A program made the position numbers. Shown in pieces: positions 1-64,000 of a stretch of 64,000 nt of DNA. Within the stretch, counting starts at the first letter, position 1. Every line of letters begins with the position of its first letter. This DNA comes from Opitutales bacterium (GTDB lineage Bacteria; Verrucomicrobiota; Verrucomicrobiia; Opitutales; UBA2987), in assembly GCA_965226885.1 (NCBI GenBank), contig CBDDEL010000017.1, positions 768,001-832,000 on the forward strand, given 5' to 3'.

Positions 1-3000
1 TGTATGAAATCATTTAGCTGGTTCCAATTTTCTATTTGATGCTTATCCTATAGCGGTCAGGTGGAACGCCTTGTTAGCAATCATTTTTGTTGAAGCTATG
101 GACCAGTTCTGGACGAACTGTCTTGTTATACACTGCACAAAAATGCTCATAAGAAATATCTCCTAATATCGGCTTGAGCTTTTCGAATAGATATTGACAA
201 TCTTTGACGATTCTGGGATACCGCATGAAAGTCAATGGTAATGCAGTATCAGATATCGCTAAGATAGAGGCTGTCCCAAAAGGGTGATTTTTGCGAGGGG
301 ATTTTGAAGAGTGTTCATTTTAGAGGTATTTTCTTTTGGGAGGGGGTGACTTTGCTCTCCTATGACGTTAGGATTCTGGTTTTGGGGTCCGTTTGCCTGG
401 TTTTCTTTGTATGGGCCGACAGTACGCCTGTGAAAAAGTATTGTCCTTGCTTTTCCGCTCTTTATTTAGGCCGCCGCTTTGGTTTTTAGTTCATCTTGCT
501 GGGCCAGCATCTTGGCCACTTTCCATAGATTGTGCGAGAGGACCGACCAGGCTACGCTGATCGAGCGGTTGGCAAAGCCTTTGGTGCGCAATCGCCCGGC
601 CTGCCAGCGATTCTTCAATACCCCGATCCGCCCTTCGGTGCTGGCCCGGCGCTTTTGCAATTGCCTGAAGTGTGGTTCCTCCATCCGTTTTTTCAACTGC
701 TTCGGATCGCGTGGACAGAGCGCATCGTAGATGCCCTCCTGGGCTAACTGCCGGCGGGCCCGCTGGGAGGCGAATCCCCGGTCCGCGCACATGGCCGCTA
801 TGGGTTCGGCTAGGTTGAAGCGGTTCTGTCTTTGCAAACTCTCTTGCATTTGTTCATTTTCGCTTGGCGTCCGGCTGCCGTAGAGTTTCCAGTCCAGCAG
901 GTATCCTTCAACGCTTTCACCCAAAAACAGGGTGTTGCCAAACTCAACCTCTTGGCCCGCTTTGCCTCGCACAATCACCTGCGTATCGGGTTCGTAAACA
1001 CTCAAAACTTTCTCTGCGTTTTTCACCTGGCGGCCGCCAATGATTCGCTCGTGCGCTTGCTTGATGACCACCGGGATTAGCTCGCTCATGCGCTCCATCC
1101 GGGTAAGGATCTGTTGGACCTGTTTTTCGCTGTAATCGCTTTGCTCCCAGCAGGCTTGCAATAATTCCCGGTGACTGCGGGCATGCTCCCCGATCCGTTT
1201 GAGCAGCTTTTTCATCTGCCTCAAGATACCCTTGCGTTGCCGCGCGCTGTCCTTTCGCCGCCGGCTGTGGGTCATCTGTATGCACAGCCGATTCATCTGC
1301 CGAGCCAAGGGCTCCGGTTCGATCGGCATGCGATGGCGCAAACCGGCCTTCTCACGGATCAGCCGGATCGCTTTGAGCAGCACCCAGTCCGTCGGCCAAT
1401 GAATGTTGACCTCCAAACAGGTGCCGTCGATCAGGCAAATGGTGGTGTCTATCGGCTTGTCCAATCCCACCACCTGCCGGGCCAGATCGGCATCGCCCAC
1501 AACCTTAGTCAAGGTCCGGTGCAAGGCCCTCAACTGCTCTTCGCTGAAAAACTTCGAGGCCCGTTCCAGGGTGCTCTTGGAGATGCCCCTTATGCCGTCG
1601 ATATGGCGGACACGACAAAAGTCAGCCAACAGATCGCTGCTGCCCAGAGCCCTCGACAAATGCCGAAACGAAATCCCACCGAGCAGATAACGCAGCGTTT
1701 CCATACGCAACGCCTTGAGGGCAAAATTAGCCCGCTTTTGCCGGGCCTTTACACTCATTGGCTGGCCTCTTTCCAAGGCCAGATCAACGCCCTGCGATTC
1801 CACCTCCGAATCGATCAGCAGCCGGTCGATACGCTCGATGGTGGCGCGAAAGTTATCGTAATCGAGGCAACGGTCGACCACAGTTAAAGCTGGACGCAGG
1901 AGGCATTGGATGGCTATATTTTTCATAGAAAGGGCTATATTGATTTTCGCTAACGCAATTATAGAACCCTTTTTTAGCCGGATCGAGCAAAAAAATGCTC
2001 TTTCCGGCTATTTTTATAAACGTCATCCAGTTGACTACAAAATCTTTATATTTTTGGGACAGCCTCTAACATACCGTCTGCTTTCCGCAGCCGAATACAA
2101 ATCTCGGATGGGAATGAAAACATGCTCGATGATTATATCGTCACGGCATAAAACTTCTTCTGCATAATGACAAAACTTTGGGTGCTTTACAATATAGGGA
2201 CAGTCTATATGTCTTATGTCATGTTCTAATCCGGCGCGAGACTTTTTAAATTTCTTAGACTCAAACTCAATGTCTTCAGCACTAAATCCGGTTTCAAGGC
2301 CTAGATGTGTAAAAAGCTCGATCAAGAAAGTAGTTCCACTTCTCCCTGTGCCTGTTATTATTACATGATTTCTTGTGGACATAGTTTCTCCTCCCTCACC
2401 AACCGAAATTCTGTCCCAGCTTCTCATAAAGTTCCTCGTTATATGGCCTGGCCGGTAAAAATTATCCAGATATTCGTAGACTTCACCCCATTGTTTCATA
2501 AATTCAATCAGATTCAAGACTGTGATCCGCATAAACAAAGGGACTAACGTGCAAAAAAGGTATATTGCTGAACTTCACAAAAAGTGAAGATACAAAAATG
2601 GATTGATAGAGCGTTATTATGGTTGTTTATGCCGCATTCAGAAGGTTTTTACTCAATATTTATGAAACAATGGGGTTCACCATCGACTTTCTTCTTGTGG
2701 CGCCCGCGCCAGCGCACACTCAGGTCCTTCACAGTGTAATCCGGATCGATTTCCAGAAATTCGAATACTCTTCTTAAAGTAGCCTGCGGATCGGCGAAAA
2801 ATTTCTCACTGCACAGTATCAGCAATTGATCCCGGTCAAAAAGCCGCCAGTAACGTTCCAGATTTCTCATATACTTCCCCACTTCCAAATAGGTAAATTG
2901 ATAACGCCGGTCTCGGCCCAGAATGCGATCCCTAAGCCTCTGTTTTCGTTTGGAGAAAGCGTAATCCTTGTCAGCCTGCATGGCCTCCAGGATCGGCATG

Positions 3001-63000: not shown

Positions 63001-64000
63001 ATCGCGCATCCCAAAATCGAAAATCGCATTTTGTGGTTAGTCTTATTTCTAATATTGAACTTGAAGAGCATCCCCGGATGTTAGATGAGTTACCGTAAAA
63101 ATGAAAGCGCGCTTTCTTATTCTACTATTTTTTTTCATCAACTTCCCGTCCATGCGGGGAGAGATGGTTATTGAAAAACCGGAAGCCCCGCCGCCATCTT
63201 CATTGCCCAAAGGGGTCGTGGCGGTTTCCGATCTTGTTTATCGAGAGGTGGCATCCAAACCGTTGAAACTGGATATCTATCGGCCTGAGGTGGAAGTATC
63301 GGAAGCCTTGCCCCTGGTCGTTTACATCCACGGCGGCGGCTACCGCAGGGGGAAACGTTCCGAAATCCTGGATATTCCTTTTTTCCGGAATTCACTTCTC
63401 GAACTTGTGGCGGACAAAAAAGTTATCCTCGCCTCTATCGATTTCAGCAAAGGCAGCAAGAAATCGCCCCTCAGCGCATTGTTCGATGATTGCCGGAGCG
63501 CCGTCGTCTGGTTGAAAGAGAATGCGGGCGAATACGGCATCGATGCCTCCAAAGTGGGATTATTAGGCAATACCAGCGGTGGGCATCTCGCTCTCATGAC
63601 CGGTCTCGATGACGGAGCGATTTCTTTTATCATCGCCTTTGGCCCGGTCACCGATTTGTGCAAAATCGCCCTGTCGGTGGCCGACAGCGAGGAAAAAGAT
63701 GATAAAAAAATTCGCACCCAACTGAAATACGGCCTCGGCGGGACGGTGGAGGAAGTTCCTCAAAACTACATCGATGCCAGCCCGGTGAATTTTATCGGCA
63801 AATCTTCCCCGCCCGTCCTTTTGATCACCGGTGAAGAGGATATACTTTTTAAGCAATCCCAAATACTGCAGGACAAAAGCCTGCAAATGGGAGCCGATTT
63901 GCGGCTGCTGAAAGTGAAAAATGCCGGGGAGGCGGTCTATGTTGTTGAGGATTATCCTGAAAGATCGCCGGATTTGTGCGAATTGACTAAAATCGCAAAC

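Follow-up and report, generated by a model that had tools for sequence, protein, structure and literature searches.

Second copies of housekeeping genes on an Opitutales contig probably belong to a co-occurring sister species

How can one stretch of a bacterial genome hold diverged second copies of tyrS, acnA, trpB, rne/rng, ftsW and a polysaccharide locus? The DNA analysed here (the window; 64,000 nucleotides, positions 768,001 to 832,000 of contig C17 of an Opitutales bacterium) raises this question. The genome-wide survey's note had answered it with DNA imported from a sister lineage and held beside the resident copies as a merodiploid, adding the caveat that a chimeric assembly across insertion sequence (IS) copies would look the same.

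To see what is duplicated, we used C17:700-896 kb as a self-BLAST query against the 17 contigs of the genome. This search reproduced the similarities described in the survey: inverted collinearity of C14:231.3-307.1 kb with C17:837.2-780.3 kb (13 HSPs of at least 300 bp, 76-92%), matches of C14:494.5-515.8 kb to C17:747.1-755.0, 807.1-808.8 and 844.4-858.5 kb (95-98%, with one HSP of 14,163 bp at 95.96%), of C12:117.1-125.3 kb to C17:737.4-743.4 kb (85.6-90%), of C12:136.0-154.4 kb at 98.6-99.6%, and of C7:3277-6417 at 91.7%. The protein identities reported for FtsW/RodA (94.4%), Rne/Rng (95.5%), TyrRS (89.6%), AcnA (93.8%) and TrpB (93.2%) were exact, and the two tRNA genes lie on C17 at about 740.3 and 743.7 kb. 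The stretch, placed at 723.8-858.5 kb, is indeed duplicated, but it does not end there and runs on to 895,738. We therefore define segment T as C17:716,539 or 720,545 to 895,738, the contig end (about 179 kb), and call the remaining genome resident. The 29.9-kb contig C4 is the same kind of DNA, and T and C4 repeat resident segments at 76-99.9% identity. Within the 179.2 kb of T, 26% is high-copy repeat, 84.4 kb have a resident match (length-weighted identity 91.6%, with the bulk of the matched bases at 85-93%) and 37.9 kb have no match at all; 57 kb are collinear with a block of the resident C14 chromosome. Far beyond what chance would give, low-copy duplicates of 1 kb or longer fall on about 3% of the genome (39 of the 75 pairs; 103 kb there vs 99 kb everywhere else). 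Sequence composition did not separate T from the remaining genome.

The whole 64,000-nt window falls within T. Its features are, in window positions:

255..2078 (-): T variant of a 1.8-kb IS with an ISNCY/IS5-like transposase of 486 aa; 98.2% to the copies in T and C4, at most 92.8% to the 133 copies elsewhere
4996-6240 (+): ftsW/rodA-type gene, second copy, counterpart in C7:3291-6413, 94.4% aa
6385-8139 (+): rne/rng, second copy, counterpart in C7:3291-6413, 95.5% aa
12286..13473 (-): tyrS, second copy of C14:305936-307120, 89.6% aa; none in congener G004
14306..17035 (+): acnA, second copy of the C14 gene, 93.8% aa
17046..21860 (+): genes for a STAS-domain protein and a PP2C phosphatase, trpB and yicC, collinear with C14:302.5-298.2 kb, 83-95% aa
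17768-18080: 310-bp T repeat, inside the STAS-to-yicC block
19759-20991 (+): trpB, within the same collinear block
23181-24006: 830-bp element of a family common to the resident genome and G004, 99-100%
24302-25639: 1.34-kb IS3-family IS of a family common to the resident genome and G004, 99-100%
26116-28306: 310-bp repeat and T-variant 1.8-kb IS
28748-30207: 1.46-kb IS4-type IS, in the present genome confined to T and C4; at least 45 copies in G004, 98-100%
30331..39150: repeat-rich insert interrupting the C14 synteny, with three 310-bp repeats, a partial 1.8-kb IS (93%) and an IS21 transposase fragment
34860-36314 (-): unique DUF3987 gene, inside the insert
about 37316-39134: T-variant 1.8-kb IS, inside the insert, about 100% to at least 46 G004 copies
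39128..40795 (+): Zn-alcohol dehydrogenase segment, gene at 39480-40634
42316..57420 (+): polysaccharide locus, collinear with C14:281-248.6 kb, 80-89% aa; genes for a GT2, a WcaF-type acetyltransferase, a priming phosphotransferase and five O-antigen-ligase-like/TPR proteins
57555..64000: hydrolase, azurin-like, DASS transporter and alcohol dehydrogenase genes, continuing the C14 synteny to C14:241.9 kb, 78-95% aa

The Zn-alcohol dehydrogenase is 100% identical in amino acids to another copy within T (C17:753541-754692) and 97.9% to C14:500153-501304. In the polysaccharide locus, for which G004 gave no match, the fourth O-antigen-ligase-like/TPR gene is split (52814-55067).

The mobile elements proved to be a sharp marker of where this DNA belongs. 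High-copy repeats or IS, with copies 99-100% identical, make up about 30% of the genome. Three IS families are resident-only and occupy 503 loci: IS1380 (287; counted as one element, as "IS1.6" and "IS1.39" are the same IS1380), a 1.34-kb IS3 type (137) and a 2.5-kb IS21 (79). None of the 503 loci lies in the 209 kb of T and C4, where about 20 would be expected. In the other direction, T has 12 and C4 three copies of the T-variant 1.8-kb IS, and none of the 143 copies elsewhere in the genome is at least 97% identical to it. The 310-bp repeat (17 copies in T, three in C4) and IS1634 (one in T, two in C4) were not found elsewhere in the genome except for one match at 69%. The T elements recur in the congener G004, which has at least 46 copies matching the 1.8-kb IS at about 100% and at least 40 matching IS1634 at 98%; the 310-bp repeat is 98-99% and a 1.2-kb IS4 99.8% identical there. 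The IS3 and the 830-bp element of T, whose families are shared with the resident parts, are numerous in G004 too. G004 also holds about two copies of the resident IS1380 at 100%.

We then compared gene content in the present genome (G000) and its congeners G001-G004. The genes tyrS, trpB and rne/rng each have two copies in G000, one each in G001, G002 and G003, and none in G004; for acnA the counts are 2, 1, partial, 1 and 0, and the control gene trpA occurs once in all five genomes. No G004 orthologue of the T backbone was found with five DNA queries covering about 58 kb (the first was weak, with 9 of 577 candidates scored). G004 does contain the DNA on either side of the resident C14 block (86-90% identity, 92-99% cover), but next to other regions and a truncated T-type IS. 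The G004 assembly is 91% complete. Its backbone is 88-91% identical to the resident backbone at seven loci, and the distance of T from the resident genome is about the same as that of G004. In acnA and tyrS trees, the T copy and the resident copy were sisters with equal branches inside G003. Together with IS at 98-100% identity to those of G004, the trees support the sister-lineage origin claimed in the survey, at a distance like that between species of this genus. Overlap did not prove T to be the exact missing piece of G004: no G004 sequence overlaps the T backbone, and the lone backbone-like match (G004:C4, 86-93%) is a Tn7-like element that neither proves nor refutes a common lineage. Such an element is no orthologue anchor, since it is mobile.

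T thus carries the lineage markers of another genome without those of its host, and single-copy genes doubled in G000 are missing in G004, which is the pattern of a chimeric contig. These comparisons establish the lineage identity of T, the partition of the IS and the complementarity with G004; from them we infer that the join is an assembly error and not a molecule in a cell. The most probable explanation is a chimeric contig together with a misbinned contig, both from a G004-like sister species. T and C4 would be ordinary chromosomal DNA of a second, co-occurring organism, a sister species in the same Opitutales genus represented by G004; metagenome assembly would have fused T to the resident contig at the IS-rich border (712-724 kb), and binning would have brought in C4. 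The second tyrS, acnA, trpB, rne/rng, ftsW and polysaccharide locus would then be the sister species' own single copies, i.e. orthologues, and the mosaic order would reflect the usual IS-driven rearrangement between two IS-laden genomes. The caveat in the survey therefore turned out to be the better reading, given the IS partition, the gene gaps in G004 and the single border. One point against it is that, if G000 and G004 do not come from one assembly, the missing block of G004 would be a coincidence of about 1 in 10, given 91% completeness.

The border itself is the only one that T shares with resident DNA. The contig breaks off within T, in a T repeat at position 895,738, and no second junction of T with resident DNA was found on any other contig. 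The border is an IS block made up of the IS3 type, IS21, a flank A and then element X, which is split by a T-type IS. The border IS21 (714,014-716,538) is entirely resident in type and differs from 66 copies by 0-6 mismatches; a hybrid IS21 was looked for here and not found. The IS21-like copies in the G004 assembly reach only 92-96%, and the 1.34-kb IS3 type next to the border is absent from that assembly; no long repeat at about 100% in both lineages is proven at the border, which counts against a chimera. Flank A (4 kb, 716.5-720.5 kb) looks resident in character, also a point against it; its aldolase gene is 88% identical to the G004 counterpart and has no second copy in G000. Element X, with an ORF of 390 aa, behaves like a mobile element; four copies lie beside rRNA-sized repeats, but an rRNA fragment was dismissed, as Rfam gave only two tRNAs in the four loci searched. 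At the border X is a mosaic, in which the 17-bp outer flank and the first 555 bp or so are 100% identical to the C12 copy and the part beyond is 92-95% identical to every copy. This mosaic shows an exchange between the lineages without telling in which genome it lies. A switch in a short conserved patch of X looks more like biological recombination than like an assembler overlap, which is a further counterpoint to a chimera. Another is the quality of the assembly: one that places some 500 near-identical IS in contigs of 0.4-0.95 Mb does not tend to err at repeats of 1-2.5 kb.

Both lineages share an island: C17:720.5-735.4 and 889.7-894.5 kb correspond to C12:133-158.5 kb, with backbones 99.4-100% identical. 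The T copy has received three T-type IS and two 310-bp repeats, and the C12 copy the resident 1.8-kb IS, IS1380, IS3 and the 830-bp element; each copy (15-25 kb) thus carries 3-6 lineage-specific insertions at a backbone divergence of at most 0.6%. Judging from the island and from IS families at 99-100%, real and recent gene flow between the two lineages is evident.

Logan contigs of public runs, which are not shown to be the source sample, were examined for 715-735 kb. The IS21-A and A-X junctions are spanned by 31-60 bp in contigs of two of these runs, which speaks against a chimera. Relative to T-type IS, resident IS21 had a depth ratio of about 0.4, 0.12 and 0.04 (sums of Logan contig depths, not copy numbers), while a genome with 79 IS21 and 15 T-type IS would predict at least 5. 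Since the ratios are far below this, G004-like organisms co-occur and dominate. Depth on the flank was 5.8 in run X19, 4.2 in X20, about 8 in X22 and 13.3 in X1, and on T-specific sequence 3.3, 6.5, about 7 and 13.3, respectively; as per-contig k-mer means at low depth, these values are hints only. In X22, A and the island had depths of 6-10 and resident IS21 was about single-copy, with T-type IS at 200-370. The seawater run X1 had a very high depth at element X, and one of its contigs (15.5 kb) joins flank A (98%) to island parts D and C without IS, which shows that A and the island adjoin in an IS-poor relative. Because the island parts are about 100% identical, this contig does not inform on the C12 vs the T copy.

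The best-surviving alternative to a chimeric contig is a real and very recent import, in which at least 180 kb of a G004-like chromosome recombined into a main-lineage cell within the shared island, by a crossover inside X at about 721.1 kb, with a natural partial merodiploid as the outcome. We consider it rather unlikely. The recombinant X, 100% identical to the C12 copy over about 555 bp plus the 17-bp flank and then of T type, agrees with such a crossover, as do the resident look of flank A, whose junctions occur in public runs, and an assembly that is otherwise highly contiguous despite 30% repeats. The lineages do exchange DNA (the island at 99.4-100%, IS at 100%, about two resident IS1380 in G004). 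However, none of the resident-only IS has moved into the 209 kb, against about 20 expected, and T-type IS have not spread beyond it; as the partition is strict while the island copies gained 3-6 insertions each, co-residence would have to be practically instantaneous. In addition, the assembly of the supposed donor lacks the very block, the second junction is not seen, the contig ends in T, and C4 is unlinked. Of the signs of a merodiploid, a recombinant junction in homologous DNA was found, but not two junctions or IS exchange between the parts. In large chromosomal imports between related bacteria, the incoming allele usually takes the place of the resident one and does not join it. Our case would resemble merodiploidy and large imports in its homeologous second housekeeping copies and its crossover in a shared element, and differs in that both copies are kept, with one border only and no IS history in common. 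Sister-lineage origin stands, but co-residence in one cell is not supported, and neither is the standing merodiploid proposed in the survey: no lineage-specific IS is common to T and the rest, G004 lacks exactly the doubled genes, and there is one border only. It is unlikely that the contig is correct and that about 180 kb of sister chromosome had just integrated, so recently that the merodiploid has neither exchanged IS nor lost genes.

Less probable still is that T lies outside either main chromosome as assembled, in a third related strain or species with the same mobile elements as G004, or in a separate large replicon or excised segment of a G004-like organism, bearing housekeeping genes and binned poorly everywhere. 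That a 91%-complete G004 lacks all T backbone tested would fit, and so would the X22 depths, the 88% identity of the flank A aldolase gene and the Tn7-like element, which is only 86-93% identical to the G004 copy; this element is mobile, though, and hence no orthologue anchor. A third lineage would leave the absence of tyrS, rne, acnA and trpB from G004 unexplained, and a replicon is at odds with 57 kb collinear with the C14 chromosome block; replication or partition genes were not noticed either (no dedicated search was made). That the resident chromosome duplicated its own segments repeatedly, on separate occasions, and that the copies then diverged where they lay is very improbable: the spread of identities (76%-99.9%) and an IS density sufficient to mediate duplications would suit it, but copies in one cell would carry and keep receiving resident IS and share the genome's IS history, while T has 0 of 503 such loci, carries IS variants about 100% identical to those of another species, and has gene copies with equal branches, as diverged from the resident ones as G004 is, so that the IS-variant partition contradicts this reading of the survey too.

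If the chimera is true, the genome representing the species includes about 209 kb (3.8%) from another one, although marker checks report 1.8% contamination. Its seeming gene duplications, its "second tRNA genes" and its redundant pathways would be unusable, and the genes would belong to G004, repairing its missing tyrS, rne/rng, acnA and trpB. What remains as real biology would be modest but useful: two co-occurring sister lineages with independent IS expansions and a recent swap of IS and of an island of about 25 kb. A true merodiploid would instead be a rare case of natural homeologous merodiploidy, with an intact second tyrS, rne/rng, ftsW/rodA, acnA, trpB and polysaccharide locus.

Chimeric and contaminated metagenome-assembled genomes are the problem that GUNC is described as addressing (PMC8201837). 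The present case is like them in having a contig-sized part with the signal of another lineage, doubled single-copy markers and a related genome without those markers. It is unlike them in that the foreign part is of the same genus, at about 90% identity, and fused within a contig rather than merely misbinned, and in that the lineage signal used is IS variants, not gene taxonomy. The marker-based contamination is only 1.8% because the foreign part is of the same genus at about 90%, and screens by gene taxonomy would probably miss it. In IS-rich genomes, IS variants and family repertoires are sharper markers of lineage than are composition or gene taxonomy, and they can reveal same-genus chimeras. 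The literature search yielded nothing specific to this kind of organism.

The Tn7-like element of T (TnsA, a TnsB-like gene, a TnsC-like AAA gene and TnsD/TniQ at C17:864-872 kb, also in C4) has the TnsABC-type and TnsD/TniQ gene set of Tn7-like transposons. It takes up about 8 kb out of the 179 kb of T, where an IS4-type IS interrupts it, and lies far from the border; nothing ties it to the capture of the whole segment. The genome as a whole, with about 30% high-copy IS at 99-100% and scrambled synteny to relatives, resembles the IS-expanded genomes of recently host-restricted bacteria, a likeness that fits the background genome and does not explain the second copies. Target-site duplications were sought as a sign that the sequences on the two sides of a border IS had once been joined. 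For IS21 and the IS3 type near the border no target-site duplication was readable; a target-site repeat of 2 bp was present at two of three copies of the 1.8-kb IS.

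G000 belongs to the Opitutales (Verrucomicrobiota) and comprises 5.48 Mb in 17 contigs (52% G+C), with the window at C17:768,001-832,000; the closest public TyrRS loci are those of MAGs labelled Opitutales bacterium (88% and 84%). When G000 was compared with itself, the matches of C17 with C12, C14 and C7 listed in the genome-wide survey's note were reproduced in detail. C17:837-780 kb aligned with C14:231-307 kb in 13 collinear inverted HSPs (76-92%), and the duplicated segment of C17 (T) was also matched by C14:494.5-515.8 kb (95-98%, including a 14,163-bp HSP at 95.96%), C12:117-125 kb (86-90%), C12:136-154 kb (98.6-99.6%) and C7:3.3-6.4 kb (91.7%). 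The protein identities that the note had given between T and the resident genome (G000 outside T and contig C4) were the same to the decimal: 94.4% for FtsW/RodA, 95.5% for Rne/Rng, 89.6% for TyrRS, 93.8% for AcnA and 93.2% for TrpB (genes named by NCBIfam). The stretch is thus present and extends further than the end at 858.5 kb given in the note: it continues up to the end of C17 (895,738). The same kind of DNA makes up contig C4 (29.9 kb). Since C4:3388-5135 matches C14:228,583-230,343 (88.8%) and extends the synteny block that ends at C17:837.2 kb, C4 comes from the chromosome of the same foreign lineage as T, not from a plasmid. About half of the low-copy duplicate bases of G000 lie in this 3% of the genome (39 duplicate pairs, 103 kb, versus 36 pairs, 99 kb, elsewhere).

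T also holds internal duplicates, because a Zn-alcohol dehydrogenase gene occurs in it twice (window 39480-40634 and C17:753,541-754,692; 100% identical in amino acids, and 97.9% to the resident copy at C14:500,153-501,304). In its polysaccharide locus, the fourth ligase-like/TPR gene is divided between two ORFs (window 52814-55067), both matched in one stretch by the copy at C14:269.8-272.8 kb; for the first such gene, the C14 match covers only 484 of 764 residues, beside an IS. The two loci thus appear to have decayed independently. A repeat-rich insert interrupting the C14 synteny encodes a DUF3987 protein (484 aa, window 34860-36314, minus strand) that has no other copy in G000 and may be what remains of an integrated element.

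In maximum-likelihood trees of acnA and tyrS (8 rows each, midpoint-rooted only, with more distant Opitutales as outgroups), the T and resident copies are sisters with support of 97/99 and 100/99, respectively. The sister branches are similar in length (0.042 and 0.042 for acnA, 0.039 and 0.055 for tyrS), and the next relative of the pair is the congener G003 in both trees, neither of which suggests that selection was relaxed on one of the copies. This is in keeping with orthologous genes from two sister species.

The decisive feature is the repeats between the genes rather than the genes. Repeats of at least 10 copies make up ~30% of the bases of G000 (C2, 8.2 kb, and C3, 10.3 kb, are the sole contigs without any repeat hit), and the copies of its main families are mostly 98.6-99.9% identical, which points to an IS burst that is probably very recent or ongoing. 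The families were compared between the resident genome and T plus C4 (209 kb, with T taken as 716,539-895,738).

Repeat families of the resident genome and of T plus C4
IS1380-family element, 1.6 kb: 287 loci, resident only
IS3-family element, 1.34 kb: 137 loci, resident only
IS21-family element with IstB, 2.5 kb: 79 loci, resident only
ISNCY/IS5-like element, 1.8 kb, T variant: 12 in T and 3 in C4, mutual identity 97-99.9%
310-bp repeat: 17 in T and 3 in C4
IS1634-family element, 2 kb: 1 in T and 2 in C4
IS4-type element, 1.46 kb: T/C4 set
IS4-family element, 1.2 kb: T/C4 set

None of the 503 loci of the resident-only families (copies typically 98.6-99.9% identical) lies in T or C4, where ~20 would be expected at the density elsewhere. 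Conversely, the 310-bp repeat and IS1634 were not found outside T and C4, bar a single match of the 310-bp repeat at 69%, and low-copy matches of both IS4-type elements in the self-comparison were confined to T and C4. The 1.8-kb IS has 159 loci genome-wide, and its 143 copies outside T and C4 are only 90-95% identical to the T variant. A second 1.34-kb IS3 (48 copies) and an 830-bp element (212 copies) are common to T and the resident genome.

All T-type elements are high-copy in G004, a congener of the same GTDB genus (4.3 Mb, 30 contigs, 91% completeness). At least 46 copies there match the T variant of the 1.8-kb IS at ~100%, at least 40 match IS1634 at 98% and at least 45 the IS4-type element at 98-100%; the 310-bp repeat matches at 98-99% and the 1.2-kb IS4 at 99.8%. 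The second IS3 and the 830-bp element are equally abundant in G004 (99-100%) and are therefore no argument for co-residence. Of the resident-only families, the G004 assembly has ~2 complete copies of IS1380 and 2 partial ones, IS21-like copies of at most 92-96% identity and no copy of the 1.34-kb IS3 type with 137 loci. The mobilome of T is therefore that of G004 and not that of the resident genome.

An island of ~25 kb serves as an internal clock. It lies at C12:133,453-158,528, and its second copy consists of the first 15 kb of T (C17:720,545-735,424; element X and parts D and C) and part B (889,711-894,489). Copies of mobile element X lie on either side of this accessory island, which is not found in G001-G004; part D was absent from all four. 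Between the two copies, backbone identity is 99.4-100% (D has 34 mismatches over 5.3 kb, C has 5 over 2.6 kb, and 3.6 kb match at ~100%). Apart from this, they differ solely in insertions specific to each lineage: the copy in T holds three 1.8-kb IS of the T type and two 310-bp repeats, the one on C12 resident-type 1.8-kb IS along with an IS1380, an IS3 and an 830-bp element. Because near-identical copies carry different insertions, IS insertion is fast relative to substitution, and the copies have been in separate IS environments since their split. On this clock, 209 kb without a resident-only IS have spent essentially no time inside a resident cell.

The gene content of G004 is complementary to this. 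Its backbone is 88-91% identical to the resident genome at seven loci, and most of T is at the same distance from its resident counterparts (85-93%). In the G004 assembly, no orthologue was found for any T backbone piece queried: neither the tyrS-acnA-trpB block by DNA search (9 of 577 candidates scored), nor the 20-kb polysaccharide locus (40 of 40 scored), nor T at 737-752 kb and 844-852 kb or island part D. The tyrS-acnA-trpB check was repeated in the congeners with protein and family searches.

Gene copies in G000, G001, G002, G003 and G004
tyrS: 2, 1, 1, 1, 0 (family and protein search)
trpB: 2, 1, 1, 1, 0 (family search)
acnA: 2, 1, partial, 1, 0 (family search)
Rne/Rng: 2, 1, 1, 1, 0 (family search)
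trpA, outside T: 1, 1, 1, 1, 1 (family search)

Both flanks of the resident block are present in G004 over almost the entire query (C14:309.4-315.7 kb at G004:C17:78.5-84.9 kb, 88-89%; C14:213.0-222.9 kb at G004:C28:508.8-518.8 kb, 86-90%), where they adjoin a truncated IS of the T type and DNA orthologous to other resident regions. The G004 organism must therefore hold the block outside its assembly. T would be the missing block of G004, set in G004-type repeats, and both assemblies summed would contain one copy of the block per organism.

The border of T is the weakest point of the chimera reading. Its order is resident unique DNA, IS3-type element, IS21, flank A, X, D, IS, C, IS and the rest of T.

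Features at the border on C17
712,292-713,619: IS3-type element
714,019-716,535: IS21
after IS21: flank A, unique, 4 kb, carrying genes for a TonB-dependent receptor and an HpcH-type aldolase
720,563-724,079: element X, interrupted at 721,661-723,488 by a T-type IS

The IS21 copy is purely resident-type (0-6 mismatches to 66 copies). Flank A also looks resident, judged by its aldolase gene, which has no second copy in G000 and whose counterpart in G004 (88%) lies between orthologues of C16 regions. The outer flank (17 bp) and first ~555 bp of X are 100% identical to the C12 copy, and the remainder is 92-95% identical to every copy in G000 or G004. X is thus a mosaic, and a change of type within so short a conserved patch resembles biological recombination. 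This shows that the lineages recombine, in whichever organism the recombinant sits.

Sampled words of the border region were found at 60-80% in six public runs of two host organisms and at 32% in a seawater run, and Logan contigs were compared with 715-735 kb. Contigs of runs X19 and X20 span the IS21/A and A/X junctions by 31-60 bp. A single IS-free 15.5-kb contig of seawater run X1 joins A (98%) to D and C, and an X20 contig joins D to C without IS (99.8-99.9% to T). Summed depths, which are not copy numbers and come from runs possibly other than the source sample, were 160, 52 and 12 for the resident IS21 in X19, X20 and X22, 150-450 for T-type IS in each, and 5.8, 4.3 and 9 for A. The two repeat sets, resident and G004-like, thus vary independently of each other by more than tenfold, and A and the island were found in X22 though the IS21-rich organism is almost absent there. 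This hints that G004-like organisms co-occur with the resident type and outnumber it, and that A may belong to them.

We consider it established that T derives from a sister lineage resembling G004. Its joining to C17 and the presence of C4 among the contigs were probably produced by assembly and binning; we infer this because the IS are partitioned, the gene content of G004 is complementary, only one border exists and both lineages co-occur. A genuine import, too recent for any IS to have crossed, would account for the recombinant X and the resident-looking flank A, but would have to fit into the negligible time allowed by the island clock, and we regard it as rather unlikely. A third lineage or a separate replicon is improbable. 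Repeated internal duplications, which the note had offered as an alternative, are contradicted and hardly credible.

The Tn7-like element (TnsA, TnsB-like, TnsC-like, TnsD/TniQ), which the note had named beside IS as an aid to capture of the stretch, is real (C17:864,100-872,000 and C4:12,280-19,157). It is broken in T by the 1.46-kb IS4-type IS, intact in C4 (99-100%) and distant from the border, so no capture role was seen; further copies lie at G004:C4:4,775-9,763 (86-93%) and on resident C16 (83-89%). The 830-bp element, at window 23181-24006, six more places in T and 205 elsewhere in G000, has a 210-aa ORF without an NCBIfam hit. It is 98-100% identical across G000, G004 (at least 41 copies) and many G002 contig ends, in genomes whose backbones are only 75-90% identical, and appears to be spreading across species. 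Finally, an 8-kb stretch found twice in G004 (G004:C28:405,336-413,479 and G004:C26:1,258-9,400) contains the resident IS1380 at 100% identity, evidence that this IS probably moved from the resident lineage into that of G004.
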